From: an uncultured virus (IMG/VR IMGVR_UViG_3300031659_000001) | Lineage: Duplodnaviria > Heunggongvirae > Uroviricota > Caudoviricetes | Virus record (IMG/VR): IMGVR_UViG_3300031659_000001 | Length of the DNA: 36,109 bases | Direction: 5' to 3' (one strand) | In this document: positions 1-36,109 of the stretch, piece after piece | How the letters are laid out: every line of letters begins with the position of its first letter | Position numbering within the stretch: position 1 is the first letter of the stretch | Translations under genes and position numbers: made by a program | Notes under the pieces: generated by a model | Database searches by the model: none | Seen by the model: only the letters and a program-made list of their open reading frames with translations | Told to the model about the DNA's origin: nothing

Positions 1-1
1 T

Positions 2-454
2 TTGTTGAATATGACAATCAATGCTTCGGCTGGTGGTGCTATGATTTCACCTCAAGCCTTGACAGGCGACCTTGTTGAAATGCCGGATTCGTTGTCATCC
101 TTTGACGCTTCAAAGTTGCTGGGTATCAGTGAATCCGCTTCTGTCCGAAAATACATCGTCGGTTTGCGAATCCCCTATGAATCCATGATCACAGCAGGAG
201 GACAGGGTGAAGTCTTACGCCAATTCATCATTCCATCGGGGCCGGGAACAGACTACCCATCCGAAGACAACACAGAACCATTTGACCCAACAAACGACGA
301 AGGCGGTGTCATCACACGCCCCAATCCATTTTTCCGCCAAAAGGTAGCAATACCGGGCGTAGTGCAAACATTCACACCCGCCTACGCCGCAGGTGATTCG
401 GTTTGGACATATACACTTGGATTCCAAGCCGTCGAACAATTGATTGGGATTTGA
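2..454 (+). CDS. 5'-truncated virion tail protein, possibly a distal-tail (Dit)-like C-terminus
   Basis: Open from the window edge and co-oriented with the tail module. The ending 'IPGVVQTFTPAYAAGDSVWTYTLGF' resembles the last strands of tail-tube/Dit folds (inference). Confidence 0.45.
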   Translation: MLNMTINASAGGAMISPQALTGDLVEMPDSLSSFDASKLLGISESASVRKYIVGLRIPYESMITAGGQGEVLRQFIIPSGPGTDYPSEDNTEPFDPTNDEGGVITRPNPFFRQKVAIPGVVQTFTPAYAAGDSVWTYTLGFQAVEQLIGI

Positions 455-460
455 TGTCAA

Positions 461-3082
461 ATGCCGATTAAGAAAATACATTCACAGGCGATCCGCTTGA
501 ACGGATTCACGGATGGAATGGTTGTTCCTACTGGCGCATTCCGTGAAAGTGGTGTGGATTTGTATGCCGCATCACATACGGAAAAAACCGGCTCAACGAA
601 CAAGGTTCCTTCTTACAATAGTGACGAACCAAAAATAGGTTTGCGTCATATCCCAAACGAAGGCAACGGTTTGAACAATATAATTGGCCCATTTACTATC
701 GAAGCCTTTGTCATACCGGACAAAGGGGGGGTAGTGGTGCATAAGGAGAATTGCTACACTCTTTCTATCGGAGAACCACATAAACAAGGCAAAGCGTCAT
801 TCGTAGTCCACACCCGTAGCATTTCGGGTGAAAATAACGGTGAACAGGTAGAAACCCCATACGACTTCCCATCAACCGAAAACATATCACTTTGGGGCGG
901 GCAAAGTGCTTATTTCGACTCATCATCCGACCTCTTGCCGCACGATTTGGATTTACCCAACCAACCACTCATCTATCTCAATGCTCAATTCACTGGTTCC
1001 GACATTCGTCTTTACATTAACGGGGATTTAGTAGCAAAACAAGACTTTGGTGGTGAAGAACGCATATTACAGTCCAGTTCATCCGATCTGTTCATTGGTG
1101 GGCGTGGTGGAGAGTTCCGTGGTGTCATAGAAAGTGTTCGCATTAGTCGAGGAACCATAGCCCCTAAATTACAACAATTCACCAAAACGCCGGTCACTAT
1201 GGGTCTTTGGGACTTTGAAGACGAAGACGATATTCCCGACATTTACTTCTTTAATAACAAATCACCTTCGCATTCATATGCTGGGGCTGATGGGGTTGGA
1301 CAAAATGACGATGAAATGCCTTATCCTATGGTATGTGTTGGTTATGATTTCAATAATGTGACTGTGAGTGGAACGATTACAACACCCATTACACTTGCGG
1401 CTGGCTACAATTACGGGCGTTTCAAAATACGAAACTTTCCGGGTAGTGCCCCAACAGCCTTGAAAATGATTGCTTCACACATGTTATCGGTTCCTATTGA
1501 TGAACTACCGCTTCAATCGTGGTGGAACAACGGTGCTGGTTATCTCGATGTGGGGGCAACAGTCACCAAAGCACGCTATCATGCTGATGGATTGCCTGTA
1601 AGCAATTTGAATGCGGTGATCAACGCCAGTGGAACCGACCCGATAACCGGCGGCTCATTCAGTTCTTTTGACTATAATTCGACTAATTTAGACCCAAGCG
1701 GTGGTATAAGCCTCAATCCGATGGCTAATCCCATTGAACGAATCCGCATCATAGCCCTCGATTTCACCACAGATGAGGTAATAGTTCAAAGTAGTTTCCT
1801 ACAAGGAACGACGGCTGACGCTAAAACGACCGGCTTTTTGTTTAGTCACCCCGACAATACACCCGTGTGGTTCACTCTCGGAAATGCTGATTTAATGATA
1901 GACCCCGGAAACGATGCCCGACCAAAAGGCCAAATGACACGGGCACGATTCACACAGGGACAGCGTTTTGAAGACAGATCTGGATTCGGGAATGAGGCAT
2001 ATTTTATCGGGACTCAATCAAGAAATGTCGAAGAAATGCTTACGCAAGCACAAAACACTGGCGGTTTAGTCGCTAACACCAATTACCCGCCGATAGAAAC
2101 AACATTGATGTTGTGGCTTGACGCCGATGACGGAAGCAGTATGATGAAAGGCACCATGGAACCAATTATGACCGAAGAAGGAAGCGGTGCTTACCCTGTT
2201 TGGTGGACAAGCAAAGCCCCTAAAGCCCCTAATTATCACTTTTATGGGGGAAACAGGGTAGGAACCGCATGGCGTTGGATAAAGAACTGTGCCAATGTCA
2301 ATAGTCGTGGAGGGCTTCAAGTTTCCTTTGGTGGTGAACAAGTCGATGCAAATGCCGAAGCGCAAGAACTACAAGACATGTTCCAACAAATGACACCACT
2401 ACAACCCGTAGTGCCGATAACAGGAATGTGGGCAAATGGGAAAGGTGCCTTCGGTGAGCCGGGAAGAATACCCGGTTTTGATGGAGAAACGGGAGGCCCG
2501 ATTGCCTTTGCTATTGAACACGCCTCAACCATTGATGGATCAACACCGACTAATAATGGGGATTTTACATTCTATTTCGTCTTAACACCAGCCTATGCAA
2601 CAGCAACGGCTACACTTGCGCTAATACAAAATGCCGGTTATGGAATAGATTTCCGTTTGGATAATGGCAGTGGTGTTCCTAAAGTGACCTATTCAAACCT
2701 AACCAATACTATGCTGGCGGCTGGGAAACCCGCCGCAGGTGTTCCTTGTTTAATCGCTATCACGGTGAATGGTAGCGAAAACGGTTCCTACAATTTATAC
2801 AACAAGGCAAACGGACACACTCCTGTTTATACAAAAACCTTCTCCGGCACCCCAAACGCCAACCTTACCTTTAGTGGCAACAATAATGTTTCTACGGCTG
2901 GTTTAGAATTGTTCGGTATTTTTAACCACAATGCTGGTGGCGGTGGGCCGGGTGACAATGCGACTGTTGCCGATGCCTACGAAGGACTTACAGTGCATGA
3001 AGTTATGATTTACGCCGGGGCGCACACCACTACCCAGCAAGCCGATGTCCGACAGTGGATTGAAGACAAGTGGGGGATTTAA
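461..3082 (+). CDS. Virion tail/adhesion protein with two LamG (concanavalin A-like) domains
   Basis: 873 aa. N-terminal LamG motifs FTIEAFV, RLYINGDLV, LFIGGRGGEFRGVIESVRISR, GLWDFE. C-terminal LamG-like motifs LMLWLDADD...HEVMIYAGAHTTTQQADVRQWIEDKWGI. Confidence 0.8.
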   Translation: MPIKKIHSQAIRLNGFTDGMVVPTGAFRESGVDLYAASHTEKTGSTNKVPSYNSDEPKIGLRHIPNEGNGLNNIIGPFTIEAFVIPDKGGVVVHKENCYTLSIGEPHKQGKASFVVHTRSISGENNGEQVETPYDFPSTENISLWGGQSAYFDSSSDLLPHDLDLPNQPLIYLNAQFTGSDIRLYINGDLVAKQDFGGEERILQSSSSDLFIGGRGGEFRGVIESVRISRGTIAPKLQQFTKTPVTMGLWDFEDEDDIPDIYFFNNKSPSHSYAGADGVGQNDDEMPYPMVCVGYDFNNVTVSGTITTPITLAAGYNYGRFKIRNFPGSAPTALKMIASHMLSVPIDELPLQSWWNNGAGYLDVGATVTKARYHADGLPVSNLNAVINASGTDPITGGSFSSFDYNSTNLDPSGGISLNPMANPIERIRIIALDFTTDEVIVQSSFLQGTTADAKTTGFLFSHPDNTPVWFTLGNADLMIDPGNDARPKGQMTRARFTQGQRFEDRSGFGNEAYFIGTQSRNVEEMLTQAQNTGGLVANTNYPPIETTLMLWLDADDGSSMMKGTMEPIMTEEGSGAYPVWWTSKAPKAPNYHFYGGNRVGTAWRWIKNCANVNSRGGLQVSFGGEQVDANAEAQELQDMFQQMTPLQPVVPITGMWANGKGAFGEPGRIPGFDGETGGPIAFAIEHASTIDGSTPTNNGDFTFYFVLTPAYATATATLALIQNAGYGIDFRLDNGSGVPKVTYSNLTNTMLAAGKPAAGVPCLIAITVNGSENGSYNLYNKANGHTPVYTKTFSGTPNANLTFSGNNNVSTAGLELFGIFNHNAGGGGPGDNATVADAYEGLTVHEVMIYAGAHTTTQQADVRQWIEDKWGI

Positions 3083-3083
3083 T

Positions 3084-6000
3084 ATGACTATATCATATCC
3101 AAATCCCGGCGTTGATTATGACGAAAACGAAGATGTTTCGGGTCTAAAGGCAGTAAATAGAGACTTTGCTGGTTGTAGTGGTGTTACATCATACAATCGA
3201 GTCAAAGGGCACTTTTTCCTTGCGAACCTACCGCAACCCCAAGACGAAGTAATTACAAGAACAGTGCAAGGATTGGCAGATCGGTTTGAAACCACATATG
3301 AAGACGCTTCGGTTGGTTCGCTGGTGTCGATGAATGACAATGTTCGCATTACCGAAACCGTGTATCAAGGAGAAGCCCTGTCGGTTATCACCAAAAGCAC
3401 CATCTCATCAATAGCCGAAACAGCAAGTCCTAATCACAAGCATTCATCGATCATCGTTCAAGGAGGCTATGGCTTTCACGACGGGACAACAAATCATAAA
3501 TCATCATCGGCTGACAGTATTGTAGCAATTGGTGTGGATGATGTGCGCCTATTTGCACTGAAAGGTCTTGACATCGACCACGATGCCCTGTTCGACACAA
3601 ACAACCCAACAAAGCCAACAGACCAAGAATATGTTCGCCACCTTACACCGGAACAGGAAACAAGAGTTGCTACAATTGATATTCCATCCTCATTAGCAAA
3701 CTTTGGATTACCACCAAAGGTATTGGTATATTATTCCGCCATTGACTTAAGTGGAGAAGTAGTAGCCGCATGGAAAGGAACTGCCGAGTATCGAACTGCG
3801 GTGGTGAACCTCGACAATACCCACAACGATCTAACATCCATCAATCAAATGGAAAAGAAGGGGTGGTTGGTGGTGGAACGCACAGTTCCCGACGCAAACA
3901 CCATTTTCGTTGATAGGAGTGTTCCAACAGCACCCGTCTATCGAACACTCGCCAATTGGTTGAAAAGACCCTTTACTGATGCTCAACGGGCATCGGGGGC
4001 GCAAACGGCGTGGAACGGATTGACGATTCATGCACCCGGAGGGCTTGTTTCTATCCCATCCACCGCACTAAACAAGCCACTACAAGACCATGTTATGCGT
4101 TCAAACCCGACTGGTGGCAAAACACATTCTCCATTTATTAACCTTGAAAATTGCGCCCATACTATCATTCAACGAGGTGGTTTAACCGTTCCCGGTGTCA
4201 CCAAGAGTATTGACAATGGCTACGGCATTCCTATTGGACAACATGGGACAAGAAGTCCAGTTACAAAGAGCGAGGGTGTTTATCATACATTTTCTTGCAG
4301 TGTGGAGAGCATGGTGGATAAGACAGCCGTGACTACACTCGCTGGTCTTGGCCCAACAACGAAAAACACTACATTTGAGCAATTTGACATCATCGACAAC
4401 AAAGTCGAAGGGGACAGGTATTTACTTCTCGTCCACCCTAAAAACCGCCAACGATCAGGCACTCTCGCCTCCTTACAGACCACCCAAAACAGTGCTGAAC
4501 CCCATTTATGTAAAGTAGAACTTGTTTCCATGCGTGGTCGAATTGAAGAGATTGCACCAAACAGCAACAGTGACGGTGGAGGCGGAGTTGTTGTCCGTGG
4601 TCGTTCTCAATTGATGGACATTTCAGATCGAATAGCAGAAAGGGATTTCAGCCTTGCCGAAGGTTTTGCTATCAAAGAGATTGGCGACCTCGGTTCCCCT
4701 ACTGTTAGCCTCACCATGGGCGGTTTGGGGCAAGGTGGTATTGATATTGCGCCTACACGGACAGAACACTCCTTCTTGCCAGTTTGGAAAGACAAGGTTA
4801 TTGGGTCAAATAACCCATCAGTTCGGAACGACCGTCAAACCTCCACTTACTATGCCTCCACCCGTGCTTTGGTGGAACTACCTCTATTCCCCTCGATGTT
4901 CTATGATGTTGAACAACGCTTGGCTGAAAGTGAAAACAAGCGTAGCCCTCTTCCTACTTCAAAAGCCACAGAACTGGTGATTGACGCTACAATGACAGCA
5001 GGTAATAGACCTCAAATGAAGGACTTTGAGAGTAGAAACGCCATTGATTGGGGCATGAAGAACATAGTGTCGTCACTGAAAGTGAATGACTACAACGCCA
5101 TTTCCGGTGGCAGGGTGTGGATCCGAGCCATGCGTGAGAGTTCAGCAACATTTACCCGTGTCAAAAACACAGGTGGCGACGGTGCGGTTATTTTGGGCGG
5201 TAGTTCAAACAACGGCACTTTCCACTATTCATCATCTTATATTGAAGTGGACAGTGTATTGCCGTTTATTCTCGATTATGAAGGAGGTTTTGAAGGTGGG
5301 GCTACGGAATATAATACCGCCACAGCAGGTGCCGCTTTCACCAATTTAGGCTATGTTGTCACCGTTGGCGAAGGTATCATCAGTGAGAGGGGTATTCGCT
5401 TCCACATTCACAGAACACGGGTGACGGGCACTTCCCAACGCCTGTATTTCGACGCATACCAGCACTGGGAGGATAATGACTTAACCTATGCTGAACTCAA
5501 GTTAATTGTCACCACTGGCCTACCTGTTGTTATGGGGTCTTGGCTTACTGATGCTGGTGCCTACACGGGTGTGGGAACTGCTGGGAATACAAACGCCACC
5601 TTTGCGGCTTTGAACGCCGCCGTCGGCACTACTGCGACTACTGTGGCACAGAACTTCATTGGGCCGTTGGAGAAGACCTTCGCCATGGGTAGAACAACAA
5701 CAAACGGTATTGATGACCGAAGTGGAATACAGATTGACCCAAGCGATCCCGACGGGACAACGATTCTCATTTACAATGGCCCTACAATGGAGGGCTTCAC
5801 CTTTGACCCCGGCCACTACCTTTACAGTGCTGACGATATGCCACTTCTTCCTCCTGTTGAATGCCGTTCGGGACACCTTTCTCTCAAGGGCAAGCGCAAC
5901 GACAACACGCTTGATTGGGTGCGTCCTATGAGCCTCAATTTGGGTTCTGTGGCAAGTGCAGGAACGGTGAGCAAGTTTGAAGAAGCGGTGGATGAGGTCA

Positions 6001-8111: not shown

Positions 8112-8112
8112 C

Positions 8113-19168: not shown

Positions 19169-19169
19169 G

Positions 19170-19668: not shown

Positions 19669-19671
19669 GTT

Positions 19672-21224: not shown

Positions 21225-21226
21225 AC

Positions 21227-21775: not shown

Positions 21776-21776
21776 A

Positions 21777-24740: not shown

Positions 24741-24859
24741 TCCTCTTCACCTCGTTTGTCGGGGGTTTGTCCAACCATACATCGGACACATTTTCGGAAG
24801 CCACTTCGTGCTAAATTGTGGCACTTTCTATCTACACATATTCTTGCTGTTAATCTCAT
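24737..24859 (-). CDS. 40-aa C4 Zn-finger microprotein (not in the ORF track)
   Basis: Translated by hand: MRLTARICVDRKCHNLARSGFRKCVRCMVGQTPDKRGEEE*. GGAGATG RBS and ATGA overlap with the next gene. Confidence 0.65.
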   Translation of the reverse strand: MRLTARICVDRKCHNLARSGFRKCVRCMVGQTPDKRGEEE

Positions 24860-24883
24860 TGTTTTTCATCTCCGGTTTTCATT

Positions 24884-24943
24884 TTCCAATTGGAATGCTT
24901 TTTGGGTTTTATCAATTGAATAATCAATTTCTCAATTGAGAAA
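24884..24943. repeat. AT-rich intergenic cluster of CAATTG-centred palindromes
   Basis: TTCCAATTGGAA (24884-24895), TCAATTGA (24912-24919), TCAATT (24924-24929) and a perfect 16-bp TTTCTCAATTGAGAAA (24928-24943). Confidence 0.75.
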
Positions 24944-24944
24944 A

Positions 24945-26009: not shown

Positions 26010-26014
26010 AATAG

Positions 26015-26956: not shown

Positions 26957-27915
26957 TACCATAACTCCTTTGGTTTTGGTTCTTCTTCGGCCTTCACCCA
27001 TTGAAAGGTTTCAAGGACTTTTTCATTTCCGGGGTCGTTAATTTCACAGGACATAGCGTCGTCGGCATGTAGTTCGCCTTCTTCGCCCCACATCTCAATG
27101 ATGCCTTGTTGGTCGTCGTGATAGATACTCACAGCGTCACAGGAATTGCATTCAAACGGCCTTCGGCCCTTTGGAACAAAGCCGCCTTTGAACTTCTCTT
27201 CCATTTCAGCAAGACTGTCGTATTGATTGAAACCATGAACTGGATTTGAAACACGGCGACTCTCTTCATCCCATTCCTTTGCTTGCGCCCATAGATCCGG
27301 GTATTTTTTCCACAGGATATGCCACGAACCGACAGGTTGCTTGGGACAGTGAAAACAGCCCAAACGCTGGAAATTGACATAGAGAGGGTTCACCATCTCA
27401 AGGGCGTCAAGATATTTGAAAGCGTCTTCTTCTGTCCAGCCCCATTCGATAAGGGGATAGCGTATGCCATCCTCCTTTGCGGTCTTCGACACACGGCGTT
27501 TCTCATCAATGGCGATACCAACATACTTGATGTTGCATTCCTTTGTAGCCCTTTGGAGGGGGTATAATTTTGCTTCTCTTGCCCAGTAGCAAGGATAGAC
27601 AATTAGAGGTGCCCCTCGCACATTACCCTCGTTCTTTCCTCTCGTCACCTTTCCATAGAACCAATCGTTCCATGACTTCTTTGAGAACACATGCTCGATA
27701 TGTAGCCCTCTTTCGGGGTATTTCTCTTGAATGTATTTCTCCACATGCTTGATGTATTCGTAAAGTTCGGGGAACTCAAAACCAGTGTCAGCGAACACGA
27801 TGCGATGCACCGGATAGTTCACTGGATCGTCCATCTCAAGCATTTTCAACAGCATGGCTGTTGAGTCTTTTCCGCCACTAAATGATACCATCGCTATGTC
27901 TTCTTTTTCTTCCAT
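26956..27915 (-). CDS. PAPS-reductase-family (CysH/DndC/SspD-like) PP-loop protein
   Basis: VSFSGGKDS, FADTGFEFPE, RYPL, RLGCFHCP, plus an extra CNSC in the C-terminal extension. Confidence 0.85.
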   Translation of the reverse strand: MEEKEDIAMVSFSGGKDSTAMLLKMLEMDDPVNYPVHRIVFADTGFEFPELYEYIKHVEKYIQEKYPERGLHIEHVFSKKSWNDWFYGKVTRGKNEGNVRGAPLIVYPCYWAREAKLYPLQRATKECNIKYVGIAIDEKRRVSKTAKEDGIRYPLIEWGWTEEDAFKYLDALEMVNPLYVNFQRLGCFHCPKQPVGSWHILWKKYPDLWAQAKEWDEESRRVSNPVHGFNQYDSLAEMEEKFKGGFVPKGRRPFECNSCDAVSIYHDDQQGIIEMWGEEGELHADDAMSCEINDPGNEKVLETFQWVKAEEEPKPKELW

Positions 27916-27918
27916 ATT

Positions 27919-30213
27919 TTACCACCACTCTTGGGGGGTTGCCCCGTCGGCTGTCAGTTCTCGCCAGCCCATAGCCTCGAAAATGAGACTGACCGGAGCG
28001 ATTATCTGTTTCTGTATAACCGTTGTGTAATCAATGTCAAGGGCTTCGAGTTCTTCATCTGTTCGGAACGCCTCGATCCCTCTTGTAGTATAGACATGGG
28101 GGACACCATCACCCTTCTCAAAGCGGTTGTCGGGGTTGCGGCGGTTGTAGTCTTTAGCGGCTCCTTGAAACCCACCTTGTTGTCCATATGATTCGGCCTT
28201 CTTACCGAGCCTAGATCTCATAACAAGAGACTCTCGCTTCACTAAAGTTCGCACAGCCCTTATCCAATTATTCATCATGTCCCTTATGTCTTCCTCCGTG
28301 GCATTTTCACGACATAGTGATTCAAAGGCTGTTTCTTGAATGTGTTTAGTGAGCCATGCGGCATTTGACTTCTTCATCTCAAAGCCAGTGCAGTGGAGTG
28401 CTTCTCTCGGCCAAGTGACCCAGCCAAAGTTTCTGTTCTTTTTGGCGGCAACCCATGACGACATCAGTTTCTCATATTCAACGACGAAACGCTCGGAGTC
28501 GAACTCCTTCTGTATCTTTCGTGTCAAAGCGTCGGCAATCTCTTCACCGTCGTCATCGCCAATTCCTATGTATGCACTGTCGGTGTGTCCTGCGAGTGGC
28601 TCGTAGCCCATCTCTTCGCACACATCCATGAGTCGTGAAACCAATGAACGCCCGACATAGGTGATAGTGGCGGCAACGGTTCTGTGTGCTTCACCATGAC
28701 CTGTGTGTCCCATGAGGCCATAGACCGATGCGGCGGCTCTCTTGAATGCTAATTGTAGTGTGTTGAAGCCAGCATGTTCCGAAGTTCCTGCTTCGTGCTT
28801 CTTCATCTCGGCCTTAGCGGCGTTGCGAGCATCAGCAAGATCCATCTGCAATTGTGGCAATACCCCTATGCTCTCTTGACTCCAAAATGTCCCGTTGCCA
28901 ACAGCACGGATATTCTCTCCCGCTTCGTGACGAAGCATTTCGGGACTGATATTGTCAGCACGCTGGATTTCAGCATACATGGCACGGTAATCGAAGACGG
29001 CTACATTGTTATGGCGGCCAGTCTTTGGCTCGGCCACGAAACCACCACCGTATGAATCTCCTTTTCCTTTGTTGTATAATCCTGTTGGCGAAGCCCACGA
29101 AGCCCTACGGCGTAGTAAGCCCCTTGCGAACCGACTTACGGTGAACACGGAACCAAATGAAACCCCACACACACGCTGTAAAGCCATGAAGAATCGGGTG
29201 ACATGGTATTCCCTGTCGAGTCGATCAGTGAGTATAACATCGGCTCTATGGTATTTCAAGAAGTCATCGAAGTGATTCAACCATAGATCGTGGTGAGTAA
29301 TCCCATTAGTGTCTATTTTCCACAGTTCGGGACTATCGGGGAATGCTACCTTTCCAACAGCACCAAGTCGGCGGTCGGACAATTGGCCGTTGCCACTGTC
29401 TCTCCACACACGCTCAAAGCCGTGGTTCCTGTCTGCCAAATCAACAGTCATTCGACCCGGTATTACTTGAGAACCATCCTCATAAACCCCACTTCGTGGG
29501 AGGTGGGTCATTGGCGGCGAACTGCTGACATCACTAAGAGGCGACATCCAATCGAAGCCAATGTAGTGGTGCTTGTAGCGTTCATACATTTTCGGCCAGT
29601 CGGCACGGTTGCCCGACCATGTAGTAATGAGGTCGGGATCCAGCGTTTTGAACGCATCGGCAAATGACAATAGCATCTCCCTCTCGGAACGAAATGCACC
29701 TAATCCTTCATGTGTCGGGTGCCAAGACCACTGTCGAACTACCTCACCGTCTGTGGTGAAGCCCATAGCGGTGAGTTCACCCTCTTCATTCCATTCAAGG
29801 TCAAAGCCACCAGCCCGAACCATGTTCGGAAACCAGTCGGGCATGTCCTTTGGATTGATATTGTCAATAGCAAAGCGGTCGGGAAAGTGAATGTCAGCCT
29901 CCCATGTTTCGTCGCAAAGGTCACGCATACCTTTCACAGAACTGGGTGATGGAGCAACAATAGAAAGTAGTTCACGGCCTTCGGGTAATTCCTCGGTCGG
30001 GAGAGATATACTGGTCTTCTCACCAGCATACCATCCACGGAAGCGTTCATCGAACATTTCCGTAATTCGTGACATGTCACTGTCGGCGGCGACATAGAAG
30101 TAAGGTCGGTAATCCGACACATAGTTCTCCATCACATTCCCGTCTTCATCACGGTAGCGAAGGTAGATCGATGGACATTCCTGTTCGTCTGTTTCGTAAG
30201 TGGCAATAATCAT
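27919..30213 (-). CDS. polB: Family B DNA polymerase with a proofreading domain
   Basis: ExoI FDLE, ExoII WSGNRADW, ExoIII YHRAD, YGGG. Polymerase motifs A FDYRAMY, B KRAAASVYG, C AGHTDS, then KKNR and GFEMKK. Confidence 0.92.
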   Translation of the reverse strand: MIIATYETDEQECPSIYLRYRDEDGNVMENYVSDYRPYFYVAADSDMSRITEMFDERFRGWYAGEKTSISLPTEELPEGRELLSIVAPSPSSVKGMRDLCDETWEADIHFPDRFAIDNINPKDMPDWFPNMVRAGGFDLEWNEEGELTAMGFTTDGEVVRQWSWHPTHEGLGAFRSEREMLLSFADAFKTLDPDLITTWSGNRADWPKMYERYKHHYIGFDWMSPLSDVSSSPPMTHLPRSGVYEDGSQVIPGRMTVDLADRNHGFERVWRDSGNGQLSDRRLGAVGKVAFPDSPELWKIDTNGITHHDLWLNHFDDFLKYHRADVILTDRLDREYHVTRFFMALQRVCGVSFGSVFTVSRFARGLLRRRASWASPTGLYNKGKGDSYGGGFVAEPKTGRHNNVAVFDYRAMYAEIQRADNISPEMLRHEAGENIRAVGNGTFWSQESIGVLPQLQMDLADARNAAKAEMKKHEAGTSEHAGFNTLQLAFKRAAASVYGLMGHTGHGEAHRTVAATITYVGRSLVSRLMDVCEEMGYEPLAGHTDSAYIGIGDDDGEEIADALTRKIQKEFDSERFVVEYEKLMSSWVAAKKNRNFGWVTWPREALHCTGFEMKKSNAAWLTKHIQETAFESLCRENATEEDIRDMMNNWIRAVRTLVKRESLVMRSRLGKKAESYGQQGGFQGAAKDYNRRNPDNRFEKGDGVPHVYTTRGIEAFRTDEELEALDIDYTTVIQKQIIAPVSLIFEAMGWRELTADGATPQEWW

Positions 30214-31007
30214 TGAGAACCCTCGGCTTCTTCTTGCCGGGGTGCAATAACTGTGTGCGTTCCAAAATCACCATCGGGTGATTCGTGGCGTATTAGCAGG
30301 GGGCTGTCGTTGCCTCCGTGCAAGTGGATTGTCCCATTTCCCGGCATAGCCTTGAGAGCATCCATAAGCCACTTTCCAAACCAATTTAGAGTAATGTCGT
30401 CTTCATCAGCGACACTGCTCTCTTGGGGTTCAAGTGTAGATTCCATGCGTATTTGATCACGCTTGACACTTAGTGTCAAACCAGCGACATTCGCTTCAAG
30501 GCAATAGAGCGCACCGCTTTGGATGGCCTTACCTGTATTGCGTAATTGCTGGAACTCCGATGAATCGAAGGCCATATGAAAACCAAAATTAGCCGAACCA
30601 AAAGCCATCCAATCGGATGCTTCACTTTCCTCAATCATGGCTACAACAGCCGAAACACCAGCCTGTGATGAAGCAGTGTTCACTGTTGGCATAGAGAACT
30701 TTGCATTAGAACCAATGACTTGGATCATGTTATCCTCACTTACCTGTAATTCCACTTCTTCGTTTCCTGCACCGCATTCGCTGATGAGGGATGTAAAGGT
30801 CTTCAATTGTCCCAGTGGTATTTCGCCTTCTACGAGGCATTCTTCGCCCTCACGGTAGTTTGTCCACCGTGTGATGAAGTAAGCCTTCTCAAGCGTTCCT
30901 GCCGCAACAAGACCCTCTTCCGTGACAGTGACGACTAAATCGTCCATGCCGTCGAAAGCCTTGAGGAAACCGAGCAGGTTGTGTTGAAGCATACGGAACC
31001 CACTCAA
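30210..31007 (-). CDS. pcna: PCNA-like sliding clamp
   Basis: 265 aa, acidic. C-terminal WLMDALK...SPLLIR...VIAPR matches the PCNA end. Adjacent to polB. TTG start overlaps the upstream stop. Confidence 0.75.
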   Translation of the reverse strand: MSGFRMLQHNLLGFLKAFDGMDDLVVTVTEEGLVAAGTLEKAYFITRWTNYREGEECLVEGEIPLGQLKTFTSLISECGAGNEEVELQVSEDNMIQVIGSNAKFSMPTVNTASSQAGVSAVVAMIEESEASDWMAFGSANFGFHMAFDSSEFQQLRNTGKAIQSGALYCLEANVAGLTLSVKRDQIRMESTLEPQESSVADEDDITLNWFGKWLMDALKAMPGNGTIHLHGGNDSPLLIRHESPDGDFGTHTVIAPRQEEAEGSQ

Positions 31008-31306
31008 GAGTAATCCCTCCTTGAAGGGTTTAGTTCACTTGAATACTGTTGGGTCAATTGGTTCACCATCATTTCCTTTTGCATAGTAATATGATTCAAT
31101 GCGTCTTCAACAGGGATCATGATAGCGTCGGGTAATTCGTCGCAAAGGATAGTAATAACCGTGTGTTCGCTCACGGAGAAAATACCTTCGTCGTTCTTGA
31201 CTACCCAAAAGGATGAGAACGGGCCAGTGGCAATAACCCACTCGCCTGTCACCGTCTTGGTTTCCTTACCACCTATGGTATAGTTAATCGTCATTTGCAC
31301 CATCAT
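31004..31306 (-). CDS. Hypothetical protein
   Basis: 100 aa, coupled at both ends, GGAGG RBS. Confidence 0.65.
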   Translation of the reverse strand: MMVQMTINYTIGGKETKTVTGEWVIATGPFSSFWVVKNDEGIFSVSEHTVITILCDELPDAIMIPVEDALNHITMQKEMMVNQLTQQYSSELNPSRRDYS

Positions 31307-32514
31307 TCATCGCCTCCTGTCACTGTGAAGTCGCCTTCTTTAATACCCGGCCATCCGTGCCAAACGCCACCGTCGTCGTTTCGCTCAAAGAGCATAACAC
31401 GACCCGACGATTGGAGAGAAGTTCGATCTGCAACGATGACAGCGTAGCCACGGACAACGCCCGTCATTTCGCCACTCTCGTTGCGTTCCTCTTCGAGTTC
31501 AGTATAGATAACTTGTTGAAGGTGTCCTTCGGTGTCCTTAAGCCACTTCGGTGTGTCCTGTCCTGCAAGTTCGTTTCCGTTCTTGTCATAACCCGGTTTC
31601 ATGTGAGTAATGATGTAGCAGTGGACTCCACCACGACATAGTTCACGCATGGCAACCATAGCAGTTTGATAGCGAGTAGCACGGATGTTCCAATTGAAGC
31701 GACCAATTTGCGTGGTTGTCTTCTTACCGGAAACAGCGATACCATCGACACCCAGATCCAAGTCATCTACCTTCATACAGGTTTCAGTGATATGTAGCCA
31801 ATGGTCTGCTCCATCGAACACCACAGTCTTTAGGTATGGTTTAGGCATTTTGCCATGTTCAGCGAAGTATTCAGCCTGTGCTTCCATTTGGGATTTAGCA
31901 GTTTTGAGAATATCAATGGTCTGTTGGAATGTAGCAGGGAAGTCATAAGGAACACGACTCTCACCGTAATTGAAGACCCAAGGGTTGAGGATAACCATGT
32001 TTTCGGCCTTATCCGAATGGTGAGCCGCCTTTGTTGTCTCTCCACCAAGATCGAAATCAATGTGCCAAATCTCGGCACCGGCTTTCACTTCTTGTGGGGT
32101 GAGGCTGTCAAGCACCATACCAGTCTTTCCTGTCTTTGGATGTCCAGCGATTCCGCACATGACGAATGCCTGTGGGGTATTCATCGGTTGGCGAGCATTA
32201 GCAATCATGGTAGCGATTGTTGGATTGACCCGTGATAGGTGACTCTCCGTATGGGCACGATTCACCTTGTTGTTGTTTGGCTTACTCTTCACCTTTGGTG
32301 GTGAAGGAGAAGGCTCATCGACAGGTGGTTCCTCGTCGAGCGATTGTTCGTGTTCAACGGAGGGGGTGTCGGGAGGAATGAATTGTTCTCTTTCCTCTTT
32401 CGTGGCAGGGCGTGGTGCCGCCGCCGCCTTCTTCGATCCAGCCGTCTTGGTTGGTGGTTCGTAGTTTCCTTTCTTTTCCTTAAAGCCGTCCAAAAATCCT
32501 GTTCCTGCCATCAT
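31303..32514 (-). CDS. RecA-superfamily ATPase (Sak4/RadA-like recombinase) with a disordered Pro-rich N-terminus
   Basis: Walker A GHPKTGKT, HIDFD, Walker B VVFDG, IITH. GGAGGTGA RBS. Confidence 0.75.
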   Translation of the reverse strand: MMAGTGFLDGFKEKKGNYEPPTKTAGSKKAAAAPRPATKEEREQFIPPDTPSVEHEQSLDEEPPVDEPSPSPPKVKSKPNNNKVNRAHTESHLSRVNPTIATMIANARQPMNTPQAFVMCGIAGHPKTGKTGMVLDSLTPQEVKAGAEIWHIDFDLGGETTKAAHHSDKAENMVILNPWVFNYGESRVPYDFPATFQQTIDILKTAKSQMEAQAEYFAEHGKMPKPYLKTVVFDGADHWLHITETCMKVDDLDLGVDGIAVSGKKTTTQIGRFNWNIRATRYQTAMVAMRELCRGGVHCYIITHMKPGYDKNGNELAGQDTPKWLKDTEGHLQQVIYTELEEERNESGEMTGVVRGYAVIVADRTSLQSSGRVMLFERNDDGGVWHGWPGIKEGDFTVTGGDE

Positions 32515-33851
32515 TCATCACCTCCGACACCGAAGCCATTGAGGTTGCCAAGATCGTTACTTGACTCGCTCGGCTTGCGTGCTGGAATAGACTTGTGTGG
32601 AACTGCATAGATACCGTGTGCTTGAACCTTGACGACTTCATCGCCGTCTTGGTTGGTATAGGACTCGGTTCGACCGACGACCCAAACACGGGAACCCTTT
32701 GCGTATGGTAGCCATTCGCCGCCCTTGAGAACGGAGAGAGCATTATGAGCCTCCTTCACTTGTCCGGCAACGCCAATACCAATGCGAGCATTTGGATCTT
32801 CACGGCGAAGAACCTGTGTGCTGATGGATAGCCAGTAGTCACGGCCTGTGGTGTCCCACTGGGACTCACGGCCTTCATGGTTAATGTCCATGACACCACC
32901 AACAATACAGACCATAGGGCCATCATAGCGTTGAATACCGTTGCGGTCAGTGTATGACTCACGGCGGTTGTCGAGATGGTGAGAGAGCAAATCCTTCAAA
33001 TTAACAGCACAGTCACCAGTAGTAGTGAGGTATTGTTCGGGATTGAACAGGCCAACACATGTGTCTCGCTTCTTACCTTCGGGAACCCAGTCAAGACCAT
33101 AGGTGGACTTTGTGTTGCTCACCGATAGAGTAGGGCCAGCACCGTTGTAGCCTTCTGCATCGAACTTTCCTTTGATGGAAATTGGTTGCCAAAGGTTCCA
33201 GTCGTGTGTAGCACCTTCAAAAGCACCTTCAACAGTAATCATAATCGGGCCTTCGTCAAGGAACTTGTCCTTGGCGTTGCCGTGGAAAGCCCAAAGAGAC
33301 TTCATAGCGGTAGCACGCTGTGGAGTGTTGTCACCCTTGAGCATACAGATCGATAGTTTCTCGTTGAGAGGAATAACCCAGTCGGGTGATGAGTCGGATG
33401 TGTCCTTTGACACAAATGTCCCACTACCGTGTTCGGCTCGCCATACGCCTTCGGAGGTGTAAGCACGGCCAATACCGACTTTGTTACCGTTGTAATTGAA
33501 TCCGTTTTTGATAGCACCTGTAAGGTCGGAAGTAGCGAAGTCGATAGCCGACTCACGCTTGCGCTTCATCAAGTCAAAGCGTCGGTCGAAGCCGATGAAC
33601 ATACCAACCCACTCTTCGCCAGATCCGCCGCCGCCACCGCCACTTGGGCGATTAGCACATACATACATGTCAGCAAAGTCGTTAAAATCATCAGCATCCA
33701 AGCCCTGTGCTGAATTACCAGCCAGTTCCCACATGTCGGTGAAGGTTTCGTTCATCCACGCACCAAAAGAGGCTAATGCCTCTTCTACCCCTATTCCAAG
33801 TATTTTAGCCGCTTCGCTTATGCAATCATTTCCAATTTGTCTTTCGCTCAT
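32511..33851 (-). CDS. Putative RPA/SSB-like OB-fold single-stranded DNA-binding protein
   Basis: OB-like C-terminus YAKGSRVWVVGRT...VKVQAHGIYA with an acidic tail. Lies between the clamp loader and the recombinase. Start moved to the ATG at 33851 after GAGGGTGA. Confidence 0.55.
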   Translation of the reverse strand: MSERQIGNDCISEAAKILGIGVEEALASFGAWMNETFTDMWELAGNSAQGLDADDFNDFADMYVCANRPSGGGGGGSGEEWVGMFIGFDRRFDLMKRKRESAIDFATSDLTGAIKNGFNYNGNKVGIGRAYTSEGVWRAEHGSGTFVSKDTSDSSPDWVIPLNEKLSICMLKGDNTPQRATAMKSLWAFHGNAKDKFLDEGPIMITVEGAFEGATHDWNLWQPISIKGKFDAEGYNGAGPTLSVSNTKSTYGLDWVPEGKKRDTCVGLFNPEQYLTTTGDCAVNLKDLLSHHLDNRRESYTDRNGIQRYDGPMVCIVGGVMDINHEGRESQWDTTGRDYWLSISTQVLRREDPNARIGIGVAGQVKEAHNALSVLKGGEWLPYAKGSRVWVVGRTESYTNQDGDEVVKVQAHGIYAVPHKSIPARKPSESSNDLGNLNGFGVGGDE

Positions 33852-33856
33852 ATATT

Positions 33857-34873
33857 TCACCCTCTTTGTTCATAATCCCCAATCATAGCATGGAGGAATA
33901 GGAGATCGCTCGCTGTCCAGTCGGGGCTTCTTGCCGCCCACTGTCCGAGGATCATGAGATGCTTACATGCAACCAAGTAAGTTATCTCATTGTCTTTGTA
34001 ATTTTGAAGGATGGCTTCATGCAATCCTTCTATGCACTCGTCACGGTTTATGCCGAGAGTATTGATGAGTTCGGAGGCAACGGTAATTGTCGCCTCGGTA
34101 GTAAGCATATCCGTATAAAGTGCGAAAATAGGCGACATATCAACGGCTATGAGACGAAGTAGTGCGTCGGGGTCTTCGGGATTGCATGTTTGCATAGCCT
34201 TCAAACAAGCACGCATATCGCCTTTGTATTTTGCGACGAACTGCTGGACATTCTCACTCCACTGTGTAGGAAATCCTTCTTCCTCTATTATACGGACAAT
34301 GAAACCAACGGCGTCATCATCCCCAAGAGGGCTGAATGAGTATGCTGGTAGTCTTGAACGGAGAGCAGGTATAATGCGACCAATACGGTTGCATGTGAGA
34401 ATCCAAAGGACATGTGAACCAGTCTGTTCGATCAATTGGCGCATGGCGTCTTGAGCGTCCTTGGTGAGTCCGTCGGCTTCATCCAGCACTATCACTTTGA
34501 AATCGTGGCCTACTGCCTTCTGTTCAGCCAAAGGCTTGAGGCGGGTTCTTACGAACTGTATGCCTCTCTCGTCGGAGGCGTTGAACTCATGGAAATTGTT
34601 ATCGAAACCAGATCCGAGCATATCCTTAGCAATAGCCCTTGCTCCACTGGTCTTACCAGTGCCCGGTTTCCCATAGAATATGACTCCCCCACACCTTAAT
34701 TGATGCTTGTTCTGTGAATGGACTACCCATGAAGGCACATCGTCCTTCAATTGCTCAAGCCCAACCATTCCTTGTAGGGTGTCGGGGCGGTGGGTCATCC
34801 ATAATTGAGTCATCATTACACTTCCGTGGGATTCATGCCAATAGGGGGTTGGGTATATAGGTTGGGGTGTCAT
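33857..34873 (-). CDS. rfcS: Replication factor C small subunit (clamp loader ATPase)
   Basis: W..HRP, YGKPGTGKTS, EFNASDERGI, IVLDEAD, LRSR, GDMR. Start moved to 34873 (ATGA coupling). Confidence 0.92.
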   Translation of the reverse strand: MTPQPIYPTPYWHESHGSVMMTQLWMTHRPDTLQGMVGLEQLKDDVPSWVVHSQNKHQLRCGGVIFYGKPGTGKTSGARAIAKDMLGSGFDNNFHEFNASDERGIQFVRTRLKPLAEQKAVGHDFKVIVLDEADGLTKDAQDAMRQLIEQTGSHVLWILTCNRIGRIIPALRSRLPAYSFSPLGDDDAVGFIVRIIEEEGFPTQWSENVQQFVAKYKGDMRACLKAMQTCNPEDPDALLRLIAVDMSPIFALYTDMLTTEATITVASELINTLGINRDECIEGLHEAILQNYKDNEITYLVACKHLMILGQWAARSPDWTASDLLFLHAMIGDYEQRG

Positions 34874-35442
34874 CGACTCGACCCCCAATCTTCAATGGAC
34901 AGGCTCTTAGTAGCCTGTTTAGGGGTCGGTTTTAGTAGCGTTGCTTTATCATGGATGATGAAATCCCAATCGCTGTCTAAAAGGTGTGGTAAGACCGCCC
35001 GAACATTCTCTTCACGGGCTACAATTCTCTCAAACCAATTCTGTTCACTTGGTCGCAATCCGAACACAGCAAGTAGGCGGTTCGGCACAGGCTTTGGGGC
35101 TTTGTTTGGAAAGGTAATGCGACGGCGACCGGAACCATCCTTTGAAAGTGCCAGCAGGGAATACATAATACCAAAACTCTCCTTCTGTAATAGTTCACGG
35201 GCGGCAAACATCACGGTTGGATCGTTGGGGCATGTGGCATTCATAACATCAAGCATGAATGCGTGGTGTGTGGAGGCGGTTTCCAAAGCATCTCTTACAT
35301 GGAGGCGGTCGTAGTCGTTCAACCACTTTCGCATGGCATCAAACAGTGATACCTTCTTCTCATCGAAAATAATATCCTCGGCGTTTGGGCATACATCGAA
35401 CCAGTCGTTCGTGTCAAGTGCCTCGTCTTCAAACAGATTCAT
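34870..35442 (-). CDS. Hypothetical helical protein, candidate non-ATPase second clamp-loader subunit
   Basis: 190 aa, coupled to rfcS, no Walker motifs. C-terminal QATKSLSIEDW is PIP-like. Confidence 0.5.
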   Translation of the reverse strand: MNLFEDEALDTNDWFDVCPNAEDIIFDEKKVSLFDAMRKWLNDYDRLHVRDALETASTHHAFMLDVMNATCPNDPTVMFAARELLQKESFGIMYSLLALSKDGSGRRRITFPNKAPKPVPNRLLAVFGLRPSEQNWFERIVAREENVRAVLPHLLDSDWDFIIHDKATLLKPTPKQATKSLSIEDWGSSR

Positions 35443-35804
35443 TCAATCACCTCTAATTTATCTAATATCTCCAACACGCCAGCATGTGTAGTCGCTTCGG
35501 GAAGACTACCGACATGAGCCGAGACGGCTAAAAAACCTTCCGGATCCTTAGTGAAATGGATGAACGGCTTCATCAGCCTCAAAAGCCGTGTCAAATGATG
35601 GGCTTTAGTGTATCGCTGTTGAACGGGCAACCCGTTCTCGATCAGGAATGCGCTCACTTGCGCTGGAATAGTTCTACGGCCAAAGAGGTCGCATTCGGGT
35701 CTTATGTCATACCCAGTTTGGTTCTTCGTGGTGAGGCGTGAAGCAATACGGAACCTAATGTTGTGTGCTACCAGTAGTATAGTGATGTCCTCTTCTTCAA
35801 GCAT
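35439..35804 (-). CDS. Hypothetical protein, possibly a degenerate LAGLIDADG fold
   Basis: Start moved to 35804 (AGGTGA RBS). RFRIASRLTTKNQTGYDIRPECDLF resembles the LAGLIDADG beta-hairpin, but there is no catalytic motif. Confidence 0.5.
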   Translation of the reverse strand: MLEEEDITILLVAHNIRFRIASRLTTKNQTGYDIRPECDLFGRRTIPAQVSAFLIENGLPVQQRYTKAHHLTRLLRLMKPFIHFTKDPEGFLAVSAHVGSLPEATTHAGVLEILDKLEVIE

Positions 35805-36108
35805 CGTCTTCACCTACCAAATACTCTACATCCTCGACAGGGACTACATCGGACAACCCTGCGGTTGGTGCCAAATCAGTGATGACTCCTTGAATGTGTA
35901 TGCCACGGTCGTCATAGTCAGCGAAGTGGATCTCAACCTCAACAAAGGTTGGTGCTTTCATATCCACCCGTGACCCTTCAACGGCCTTTGCTTCTCCTGT
36001 CATTCGTGCTAAACGCTTCTCTATGTGATGCTCGGCAGTAATAGTTCCTACCTCATAATAACCGTCAATGCCATCACGGGCGGCTACGCACCAGCCGTTC
36101 AACACCAA
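35797..36108 (-). CDS. C-terminal OB domain of an ATP-dependent DNA ligase-like protein (truncated by the window edge)
   Basis: VAARDG...YYEVGTI...PTFVEVEI pattern and position in the replication block. The canonical RFP and RxDK motifs are absent. Confidence 0.5.
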   Translation of the reverse strand: MVLNGWCVAARDGIDGYYEVGTITAEHHIEKRLARMTGEAKAVEGSRVDMKAPTFVEVEIHFADYDDRGIHIQGVITDLAPTAGLSDVVPVEDVEYLVGEDDA

Positions 36109-36109
36109 G

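Follow-up and report, generated by a model that had tools for sequence, protein, structure and literature searches.

The window (the whole stretch of DNA analysed here, 36,109 nucleotides) carries an archaeal-type replication module on its minus strand (21227..36108), which was recognised from profile matches and includes genes for an ERCC4/Hef-like nuclease (23366-24073), a primase-like protein (24945-26075), a PD-(D/E)XK nuclease (26015-27001), PolB (27919-30213), a PCNA-like protein (30210-31007) and RFC (33857-34888). On the plus strand, profile matches pointed to a Dam-family (D12 class) N6-adenine DNA methyltransferase gene at 19672..21012, encoding a predicted protein of 446 amino acids with the catalytic motif DPPY at residue 341. 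The matches were to Pfam PF02086 (E 2e-11), TIGR00571 dam (E 3e-13) and DpnM (2dpm; E 2e-6), and the predicted enzyme appears divergent because the TIGR00571 score fell below the curated cut-off.

The presence of the replication module identified the element as a magrovirus-type virus. A separate IMG/VR record, 100% identical over 14,435 bases, extends the genome, and this continuation carries TerL, TFB-like, thermosome (E 9e-166) and HMG-CoA-lyase-like proteins. The magrovirus hallmarks found were a near-complete archaeal-type replication apparatus, a tailed-virus module and a chaperonin, the comparison set being the order Magrovirales, with genomes of about 100 kb, as described in PMC5434244 and PMC10768690. 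The window represents ~40% of a magrovirus-type genome of about 90 kb, and a relative of 100,888 bases was 95% complete. A DNA search of a phage collection gave no match to any named magrovirus, and the best protein matches in that collection were haloviruses, with ~23% identity for PolB. Scanning genome contigs with the viral PolB found no relative, and the same kind of scan with the thermosome of the virus gave a single hit, a Woesearchaeota MAG (51% identity); a protein-atlas look-up of the thermosome returned generic archaeal and eukaryotic chaperonin clusters only.

Short words missing from the window

The original prediction reported, for several sampled kb, no AGCT, GTAC, ACGT, CGCG or GCWGC and apparently no GGWCC, CTCAG, CTGAG or RAATTY, and in an exhaustive count over 36,109 nt each of them occurred 0 times. 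The words it described as common were indeed retained, namely GATC (91), TCGA (134), CCGG (102), GGCC (90), CATG (169), TGCA (106) and GCGC (38), the last being itself ~2-2.5-fold low against 74-95 expected. The avoidance was thus confirmed and had been understated, since the list of words was incomplete. CTAG was present twice against 64 expected, CCWGG and CAGAG were absent, and YCWGR was found 12 times against 281 expected. Purging also affected 48 of the 64 six-base palindromes and spaced palindromes such as GGTNACC, CCTNAGG, GACNNNGTC, GCANNNNNTGC and CCTNNNNNAGG, while 173 of 2016 non-palindromic hexamer pairs had no copy at all. As judged from counts and null models, the loss of ~25 or more short words extends over the whole window (1..36109) and includes the two strands as well as the two gene blocks. 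A stringent filter applied to the window alone was passed by 5 four-base, 6 five-base and 14 six-base words, and ~1,084 sites were lost relative to first-order Markov expectation.

The purged set comprises the four-base words ACGT, AGCT, CGCG, GTAC and CTAG, the five-base words YCWGR (CCWGG included), GCWGC, GGWCC, CTCAG and CAGAG, and ~30 further palindromic and ~20 non-palindromic six-base words, giving >50 distinct words in total. The ~20 non-palindromic words resemble Type IIS, IIG and III sites. In the 86-kb virus, observed/expected counts were 0/151 for RAATTY, 1/63 for CYCGRG, 0/75 for GWGCWC, 0/50 for RGCGCY, 0/91 for GTYRAC, 0/65 for CMGCKG and 1/47 for CTRYAG. The purge was all-or-none word by word and spared neighbouring words, so that GGYRCC (75/76), RGATCY (80/80), CACNNNGTG (25/28) and GCSGC (237/117) were kept in the same DNA. 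Wider degenerate motifs were rejected as purged wholes (GTNNAC 132/322; GDGCHC 43/174), as were GGNCC, CCNGG and GCNGC, where loss was limited to the W or other specific sub-forms.

A first-order Markov model of the window predicted 133 copies of ACGT, 84 of AGCT, 96 of CGCG and 100 of GTAC, and the observed/expected check suggested with the original prediction therefore gave ratios far from 1 (0 observed against 84-133). A synonymous-codon null was also prepared by shuffling 21 ORFs, which account for 34,338 of the 36,109 bases, 200 times with amino acids and codon usage fixed. Here the expected values were ACGT 101, AGCT 102, CGCG 79, GTAC 104, GCWGC 51, GGWCC 45, CTCAG 41 and RAATTY 31; the shuffle minima for these words were 19-82, and none of the 200 shuffles approached 0. 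Absent hexamer palindromes numbered 0-2 in 30 Markov simulations and 0.5 on average (maximum 3) in the shuffles, compared with 48 in the window, and the shuffle mean for absent non-palindromic hexamer pairs was 0.1, compared with 173.

The accompanying claim that codon pairs bend to comply held as well. The first codon of Ala-Ala pairs was GCC in 45 cases, GCG in 23 and GCA or GCT in none, yet GCA and GCT together make up 56% of all Ala codons, and Gly-Pro pairs began with GGC (14) or GGG (10) and never with GGA or GGT. Similarly, GGT was used in 0 of 76 Gly-Thr pairs, TAT in 22 of 22 Tyr-Val pairs and GAT in 30 of 30 Asp-Val pairs. That the purge works via codon context, and not via composition, is supported by these observations. 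Mutational bias, or drift to the oligonucleotide signature of the host without selection on the virus, might account for some of the deficits, as CTAG is low in many prokaryotes and the window shows a moderate shortage of TA and CAG. It is nevertheless extremely unlikely as an overall explanation, given exact zeros against ~100 expected with amino acids and codon usage fixed, the purging of words both with and without CpG, and, as described below, on/off differences between lineages and controls without the pattern.

Control genomes, relatives and presumed-host methylomes

Equal depletion in unrelated genomes, the outcome named in advance as counting against selection by hosts, was not observed for ACGT, AGCT, GTAC and CGCG in T7, a cyanophage and a Woesearchaeota contig, where none of these four words is missing. 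When equal-length pieces were compared, 5 of the 16 four-base palindromes were eliminated in the window, against 1 in T7, 3 in cyanophage S-BM3 and 2 in halovirus VOLN27B. The VOLN27B control, a haloarchaeal virus, lacked 44 of the 64 hexamer palindromes, and also CCWGG, GCWGC and GGWCC. A hexamer purge unique to the magrovirus was rejected on these grounds, and, because VOLN27B is nearly as purged of hexamers, the window can be taken as an extreme case of a known phenomenon.

This similar hexamer loss in the halovirus, and the preponderance of palindromes among the purged words (48 of 64 at six bases), would also fit short palindromes being avoided across the board because of DNA structure or replication (hairpins, cruciforms, slippage), with no involvement of restriction enzymes. 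Such an avoidance is most unlikely, however, because many palindromes stood at or above expectation (CAATTG 63/45 and ACATGT 35/33, besides the GGYRCC, RGATCY and CACNNNGTG values given above), the ~20 non-palindromic words were lost equally completely, and other palindromes were lost in relatives. Moreover, palindromes of four to six bases are generally too short to form hairpins.

The core purge was common to 19 of 19 relative loci found in IMG/VR records. For an artefact of assembly, library preparation or synthetic sequence no supporting point was found, and the shared purge, together with the separate record that matches 14,435 bases exactly and carries the genome onward, makes it scarcely credible. 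Among the lineages compared, which span 58-85% PolB identity, word loss differed in an on/off manner. GCWGC was absent from four lineages and present at 207/181 in lineage G003, where GCSGC was lost instead (GCCGC 0/76); TCGA stood at 286/307 in the window's virus versus 1/225 in G005, and CTCAG at 0 in the window's virus versus 185/125 in G004. GTWAC was absent from four relative lineages and present at 45/124 in the window's virus, and GTNAC stood at 9/291 in G003. None of the lineages examined was without an orthologue of the Dam-family methylase, with identities of 77% for the 85% group and 39-41% for G003-G005. Of two further methylases, MT_A was found in G003, G004 and G005 and MT_B in G003, G004 and the 85% group, while the window's virus had neither; fewer methylases can be recognised in it than in its relatives, and still it tolerates a larger number of words. 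No clean methylase-to-motif map was obtained. Only AAATTC, CACGAG and CCTGA tracked MT_A, and this tracking is a lead at most because the five lineages are non-independent.

SMRT methylomes of seven Ca. Poseidoniia MAGs record m4C at GTAC, CGCG and AGCT, and m6A at GTWAC, GTNAC and GATC (PMC8919816 Data S1/S2). Among these host-methylated words, CGCG, GTAC and AGCT were purged in the window and GATC was kept, while GTWAC and GTNAC were purged in relatives. In the data set of PMC8919816, GTWAC/GTNAC was methylated in four MAGs only, namely three Ca. Poseidoniia and CM1_5m.P82 (Euryarchaeota), and these words are accordingly the sharpest case for the host link. CGCG is methylated in MGIIa MAGs too (PMC9516812). 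Methylated ACGT was reported for no MAG of PMC8919816, and the MAGs reported with methylated CTAG carry labels other than Poseidoniia. The host-methylated words GAAAC (270/222), GGTAG (85 and 83 copies) and CRGTGACV were rejected as avoided words, since the window's virus does not avoid them. For the Poseidoniia MAGs, PMC8919816 gives an REase gene count of 0, and the host methylation could therefore stem from orphan methylases. That Poseidoniales are the hosts of magroviruses is, in the literature too, a conclusion drawn by inference (PMC5434244).

It could also be that sequence-specific nucleases of the virus, or of a competing element, degrade host DNA, and that the virus lost its own sites to avoid self-cutting. 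The window does encode the PD-(D/E)XK (26015-27001) and ERCC4/Hef-like (23366-24073) nucleases, and Liu et al. 2021 (PMC8651126) note entire R-M systems in some tailed viruses of archaea. However, the nuclease families found are those of repair and recombination and not of restriction, and PADLOC detected no restriction endonuclease among 18 proteins of the virus (17 from the window and 1 from locus L022) and 114 ORFs of relatives, its sole restriction-type match being a helicase-like PbeA/Type IV protein. More than 50 distinct words would also demand dozens of enzymes in a ~90 kb genome, and the purged words match methylated motifs of host MAGs. Self-protection of this kind is thus very unlikely.

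Surviving sites: GATC overlap and strand polarity

GATC was retained (91 copies in the window and 220 in the 86 kb) while other palindromes were purged. The 12 surviving YCWGR sites in the window, at 1979, 4455, 4623, 14266, 20263, 21050, 21616, 24030, 31752, 33619, 34608 and 35642 (span 1979..35646), all read YCWGATC or GATCWGR. Overlap with GATC was therefore seen in 12/12 survivors in the window, 36/36 in the 86 kb and 47/47 in five loci of the 85% group, although a GATC is overlapped by no more than 2% of all five-base windows. Where they overlapped GATC, YCWGR sites were near expectation in the 86 kb (36 versus 47), and in the window 12 were observed with 18.1 expected. The same held for CTAG (3/3 survivors) and TCATGA (4/4). 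Both CTAG sites in the window survive as CTAGATC (26671..26677 and 28211..28217). Such a rescue is not predicted by a structural model of palindrome avoidance.

Because every surviving copy of these purged words shares bases with a GATC, the viral GATC is most likely m6A-modified, which would shield the overlapping sites. The m6A present at host GATC (PMC8919816) could be an alternative source of this methylation. Survival at GATC overlaps is the pattern expected from a methylation-sensitive nuclease combined with GATC methylation, but how CTAGATC would be shielded is not obvious because the methylated adenine falls outside CTAG. In the laboratory, overlapping Dam methylation blocks some restriction enzymes, for example those cutting TCATGA or TCTAGA. 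The magrovirus sites resemble these cases in surviving as YCWGATC, GATCATGA/TCATGATC and TCTAGATC, with the GATC adenine in or adjoining the site, and differ in that the evidence is which sites have persisted during the evolution of a natural virus, and not a digest. To our knowledge, YCWGR corresponds to no specificity known by name.

A different kind of survival was found for AGTTG. Ten copies were present in the window, at 114, 3665, 4586, 6674, 6851, 7799, 9869, 10233, 16371 and 23282 (span 114..23286), all on the plus strand (10:0), and CAACT occurred 0 times on that strand. In the 86-kb virus the ratio was 19:0, with 17 copies in plus-strand genes and 2 in minus-strand genes. Between 64 and 96 copies were expected per orientation, so the surviving orientation was itself depleted 3- to 5-fold, and the polarity had p ~0.01 after correction for ~2,650 words. 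No extended consensus was found in the flanks of the 19 sites. Polar words were also present in relatives, with GCGTTC at 23:0 in G003, where polarity was limited to the first 31 kb, and TACT at 59:10 in G004 versus 2:0 in G005. The one-strand survival of AGTTG may represent a Type III-like signature. Every site of the Type III enzyme EcoP15I is reported to lie in one orientation in T7, and AGTTG is likewise confined to one DNA strand whatever the gene direction; unlike in T7, the word is also depleted in its surviving orientation, and one relative (G003) is polar only in its first 31 kb. We know of no cognate enzyme for AGTTG/CAACT.

Host restriction as the proposed selective agent

Taken together, the data very probably reflect a magrovirus-type tailed virus, with Poseidoniales (Marine Group II) as presumed host, from which all copies of many restriction-type words have been removed under host restriction-modification selection; we infer both the agency of restriction endonucleases and the identity of the host. 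Selection by host restriction-modification would act through synonymous codon and codon-pair choice, and DNA freed of sites would be uncuttable whatever its methylation state. As a second layer, GATC is kept and would be methylated by the Dam-family enzyme, m6A at GATC shielding overlapping sites. In a third, depletion of AGTTG/CAACT with one-stranded survivors would leave a Type III-like enzyme, which requires a pair of sites in inverted orientation, unable to act.

The proposal that host restriction has left its negative image in the missing words is supported by four independent lines, namely codon context, the GATC-overlap survivors, lineage-specific words and the Poseidoniia methylomes, and, because missing words match marks in presumed hosts, the viral sequence can be read as an imprint of the defences of these hosts. 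It is plausible that purge lists could serve to predict hosts. There is perhaps an even chance that each lineage's purge list amounts to a quantitative, sequence-only readout of the pooled Poseidoniales restriction repertoire. If so, the TCGA, GCWGC/GCSGC, GTWAC/GTNAC, CTCAG and RAATTY switches would mark the host clades that each virus meets, so that viruses could be matched to hosts, and enzymes discovered, with no need for cultures.

Magroviruses rank with the most abundant viruses of the ocean, both they and their hosts are uncultured, and the arguments linking the two are indirect. The agreement between the purge list and Poseidoniia methylomes supports this link independently, and the list could be used to assign virus lineages to host clades. 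Its breadth implies a very diverse pool of restriction systems in a streamlined marine archaeon population, and the GATC-overlap rule suggests that DNA methylation and the methyl-sensitivity of enzymes can be deduced from sequence alone. We know of no enzyme matching YCWGR blocked by m6A at the last base, CCAG or AGTA (in relatives), or the polar CAACT, and several purged words may indicate restriction specificities so far undescribed.

The literature searched held no report of site avoidance in magroviruses. Restriction-site avoidance was surveyed in virulent dsDNA phages and archaeal viruses by Rusinov et al. 2018 (PMC6286503). The window resembles the cases described there, in that orthodox Type II words were lost by synonymous change, in a word- and lineage-specific manner, from an apparently lytic dsDNA virus. 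It differs in scale, with 5 of 16 four-base palindromes and >50 words purged, and in having an uncultured host. In the survey, Type I and IIG sites are not avoided and Type III sites are avoided only rarely, unlike the ~20 non-palindromic words purged in the magrovirus. Haloarchaeal tailed viruses are described by Liu et al. 2021 (PMC8651126) as following a 'self-methylate or purge' rule, in which viruses encoding a Dam methylase retain GATC and those lacking one have purged it. As an archaeal tailed virus that keeps GATC and encodes a predicted Dam methylase, the magrovirus is similar to them. Unlike those viruses, it has a broader four-base purge and a PolB only ~23% identical to theirs, and it combines purging with probable Dam methylation, so that GATC appears to rescue overlapping purged words.

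Missing words in the window and in control genomes

An exhaustive word count over all 36,109 bases of the window (GC 48.3%) returned no copy of ACGT, AGCT, GTAC, CGCG, GCWGC, GGWCC, CTCAG, CTGAG or RAATTY, the full set of words that the original prediction had listed as absent, while those described as common do occur (GATC 91, TCGA 134, CCGG 102, GGCC 90, GCGC 38, CATG 169, TGCA 106). A first-order Markov model predicted 84–133 sites for each missing four-base word, and the observed/expected ratios were far from 1. CTAG was found at 2 sites where 64 were expected, and CCWGG and CAGAG were also at zero. A stricter null was then built by shuffling synonymous codons with protein sequences and per-gene codon usage held fixed (21 ORFs, 34,338 of the 36,109 bases, 200 shuffles). 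Under this null the expected numbers were ACGT 101, AGCT 102, CGCG 79, GTAC 104 and CTAG 54 for the four-base words and GCWGC 51, GGWCC 45, CCWGG 48, CTCAG 41, CAGAG 43 and RAATTY 31 for the longer ones, and the near-zero counts were reached in none of the 200 shuffles. The observation of missing words is real and extreme, and the purge is far broader than the list originally given. Six-base palindromes were absent from the window in 48 of 64 cases, compared with 0–2 in 30 Markov simulations and a mean of 0.5 (maximum 3) under synonymous shuffling. Among non-palindromic hexamer pairs, 173 of 2016 were absent from coding sequence (shuffle mean 0.1), 143 including a shorter purged word and 30 without one. 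CAATTG was the sole hexamer palindrome clearly above expectation, at 30 versus 18 in the window and 63 versus 45 in the 86-kb virus.

The claim that codon pairs bend to comply with the purge proved exact. The first codon of Ala-Ala was GCC (45) or GCG (23) and never GCA or GCT, and that of Gly-Pro was GGC (14) or GGG (10) and never GGA or GGT. GGT was used in 0 of 76 Gly-Thr pairs, TAT in 22 of 22 Tyr-Val pairs and GAT in 30 of 30 Asp-Val pairs, and Pro-Gly used CCG or CCC only.

Control genomes were compared as pieces of equal length. T7 had eliminated one four-base palindrome (GATC) and lacked 20 of 64 hexamer palindromes; the values were three (CCGG, GGCC, TTAA) and 26 for Cyanophage S-BM3, two (CTAG, GATC) and 44 for Halorubrum virus VOLN27B, and five and 48 for the window. 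Comparable word loss was not seen in a Woesearchaeota MAG contig. If the purge were the product of general mutational bias, equal depletion would be expected in unrelated genomes; this explanation is excluded because no control lacks ACGT, AGCT, GTAC or CGCG.

The purge across 86 kb and the sites that survive

The analysis covered 86,016 bases, made up of the window and the non-overlapping remainder of a record 100% identical to it over 14,435 bases. A hierarchical filter flagged five 4-mers, eight 5-mers and 47 6-mers. Degenerate words were lost as whole groups (observed/expected: RAATTY 0/151, CYCGRG 1/63, GWGCWC 0/75, GRGCYC 0/66, RGCGCY 0/50, GTYRAC 0/91, GTMKAC 1/49, CTRYAG 1/47, CMGCKG 0/65, RGGNCCY 3/74), with near neighbours unaffected (GGYRCC 75/76, RGATCY 80/80, GCSGC 237/117). 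The spaced palindromes GGTNACC, CCTNAGG, GACNNNGTC, GCANNNNNTGC, CCTNNNNNAGG and CAGNNNCTG were lost, and CACNNNGTG, CCANNNNNTGG, GCCNNNNNGGC and GAANNNNTTC were at the expected level. Most of the purged words are probably targets of restriction enzymes already described, of Types II, IIS, IIG and III. CGTCTC was at 0 in the 86-kb virus, versus 5 for its complement GAGACG, and was at 0 also in the relative lineages G003, G004 and G005; methylases with a best match to CGTCTC enzymes, at 22–35% identity, are listed for Poseidoniia MAGs in the part of PMC8919816 available (Data S3).

The true form underlying the CCWGG, CCAGA, CCTGA and TCAGA series was found to be YCWGR. Every one of its survivors (12 in the window, 36 in the 86 kb) shares bases with a GATC and reads YCWGATC or GATCWGR; 2% of five-base windows have such an overlap. 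The GATC-overlapping class was close to its expected number (36 versus 47), and the non-overlapping class stood at 0 versus ~ 650. The same overlap was seen for 47 of 47 YCWGR survivors in five loci of the 85% group of relatives. Other survivors overlapping GATC were CTAG (3 of 3), TCATGA (4 of 4) and single copies of four further words, and two survivors did not overlap it (GGTCC at 51117 and GTCTAC at 24406). The virus keeps the GATC word, with 220 sites in the 86 kb. A Dam-family methylase gene is present in every lineage; in the window it is a D12/Dam-class adenine methylase in the plus-strand block (19672–21012), with DPPY at residue 341. The overlap rule speaks for methylation-sensitive nucleases as the agent of the purge, and the simplest reading is that GATC on the viral DNA would carry m6A, which would block enzymes whose site takes in that adenine.

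One depleted word was also oriented. AGTTG occurred 19 times on one strand of the 86 kb and its complement CAACT not at all (10 : 0 in the window), where 64–96 sites per orientation were expected; 17 sites lay in plus-strand genes and 2 in minus-strand genes. Polar words were also found in relatives (GCGTTC 23 : 0 and TTGGGTC 20 : 1 in G003, TACT 59 : 10 in G004), and TACT is purged in G005. Depletion together with a single orientation is the outcome that would be favoured under attack by an enzyme that needs two inverted sites, as for T7 and EcoP15I. By this analogy, evasion of an enzyme requiring inverted site pairs has roughly even chances of being the cause of the AGTTG bias. On the top strand of G003 (L024–L025), AGTTG and CAACT stood at 57 : 1 in bases 1–31000 and at 61 : 77 in the remaining 70 kb, confining the polarity to the first 31 kb.

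Relatives and published host methylomes

Nineteen IMG/VR loci carried PolB at 58–100% identity. ACGT, AGCT, GTAC, CTAG and CCWGG were zero or nearly so in all of them, the sole exception being the short locus L011 (ACGT, 2.7 per 10 kb). In G003 (100,888 bases, 95% complete), ACGT, AGCT and GTAC were at 0 versus 182–349 expected, and 50 of 64 hexamer palindromes were absent. Other words differed between lineages. TCGA stood at 286/307 in the window's virus and at 69/425 (85% group), 1/225, 41/264 and 18/221 in relatives. GCWGC was at 0 here and in three other lineages and at 207/181 in G003, with GCCGC at 0/76 there. Words at 0 in the window's virus included CAGAG (G003, 235/172), CTCAG (G005, 75/73; G004, 185/125), TTGCAA (tolerated by G003 alone) and GAATTC (tolerated by G004 and G005 alone), while the non-palindromic CCAG, unpurged here, was at 2/419 in G005 and 3/593 in G004. 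Base composition as the cause does not fit words that switch on and off between lineages; such switches fit changing word-specific selection.

In relatives, one or two additional Type II-like methylase genes adjoin the replication genes (L025:2988–5715 in G003, L031:4406–6502 in G004, L034:11312–12967 in G005, and L003:14122–15507), matching as MT_A (E 7e-95 to 7.5e-112) and MT_B (E 2e-42 to 8e-46). Neither gene is present in the window's virus, and still more words (TCGA, GAAGAC, GGYRCC) are tolerated there than in the relatives; AAATTC, CACGAG and CCTGA are tolerated only in lineages with MT_A. A helicase-like protein of G003 (L024:7643–9136) and G004 (L030:8897–10366) matches PbeA/Type IV restriction models (PADLOC E 2e-42 and 4e-36), and was not found in the window's virus by tblastn.

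The host side was tested against published methylomes rather than Poseidoniales genomes themselves. For seven Ca. Poseidoniia MAGs, the available part of Hiraoka et al. 2022 (PMC8919816) gives GTAC (m4C), CGCG (m4C) and GATC (m6A) for CM1_5m.P3; GTWAC (m6A) and AGCT (m4C) for CM1_5m.P48; CGCG and GATC for CM1_5m.P71; GTNAC (m6A), CGCG, GATC and CRGTGACV for CM1_5m.P78; GAAAC and GATC for Ct9H_90m.P16; GTWAC and GATC for CM1_200m.P21; and no methylated motifs for Ct9H_300m.P30. All three non-GATC four-base motifs in that part (CGCG, GTAC, AGCT) are among the five words purged in the window, a match with a chance of 10/560 = 0.018 for 3 drawn from 16. CGCG is methylated in MGIIa too, according to the part of Seong et al. 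2022 available (PMC9516812). GTWAC/GTNAC methylation is limited, in the same part of PMC8919816, to four MAGs, three Ca. Poseidoniia and one Euryarchaeota (CM1_5m.P82); GTWAC was at 0 in four relative lineages and at 45/124 in the window's virus, and GTNAC at 9/291 in G003. GATC, there methylated across archaeal MAGs, is the word that the virus retains. Against the match, host-methylated GAAAC and GGTAG are not avoided by the virus, and the portion of PMC8919816 consulted reports ACGT methylation in no MAG, CTAG methylation only in MAGs not labelled Poseidoniia, and zero endonuclease genes for the Poseidoniia MAGs. The proposal that the missing words are a negative image of host restriction is supported by the evidence from codons, from comparisons and from methylation overlap, and also by the host methylomes as far as these sources give them.

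Identity of the virus and comparison with known systems

Encoded in the minus-strand block of the window are replication proteins (family B DNA polymerase, RFC-type clamp loader, PCNA-like clamp and primase-like protein), two nucleases (PD-(D/E)XK and ERCC4/Hef-like) and a PAPS-reductase-like protein. On the plus strand, three giant ORFs follow consecutively (461–3082, 873 aa; 3045–8111, 1688 aa; 8032–17697, 3221 aa), with Pfam matches limited to Laminin_G_3/concanavalin-like domains; their products probably serve as tail fibres or adhesins. The genome continuation adds a large terminase, a TFB-like protein, an HMG-CoA-lyase-like protein, a UvrD-type helicase and a thermosome subunit (E 9e-166). 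The gene set corresponds to the published description of magroviruses, whose assigned hosts, in the available parts of PMC5434244 and PMC10768690, are archaea of Marine Group II (Poseidoniales).

The PAPS-reductase-fold protein adjoins PolB (26956–27915, minus strand; L022:7749–8504). It matched best to SspD, from the Ssp phosphorothioation system (PADLOC E 2e-21), and less strongly to BrxP and DndC; a ParB_N-domain protein is encoded elsewhere in the genome. Similar-sized ORFs (321–331 aa) lie beside PolB in G003, G004 and G005, resembling it by size and position alone. Judged from these sequence matches, the protein may provide a second DNA-modification route.

No mention of site avoidance was found in the magrovirus literature searched, including PMC5434244 and PMC10160649. 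Among cultured viruses, haloarchaeal tailed viruses come closest, with ~ 23% PolB identity. The same filter flags 27 words in VOLN27B and 25 in the window, and this haloarchaeal virus is nearly as purged. Cultured VOLN27B (L038, bases 1–36109) is also without CCWGG, GCWGC, GGWCC, GAGCAC and GAGCCC, several being common to the marine virus. It too shows a broad hexamer purge, and hexamer breadth is therefore not peculiar to the window's virus, which is distinguished from the controls by the loss of five four-base words at once. What is seen here is a case of a known kind, the avoidance of restriction sites combined with self-methylation.
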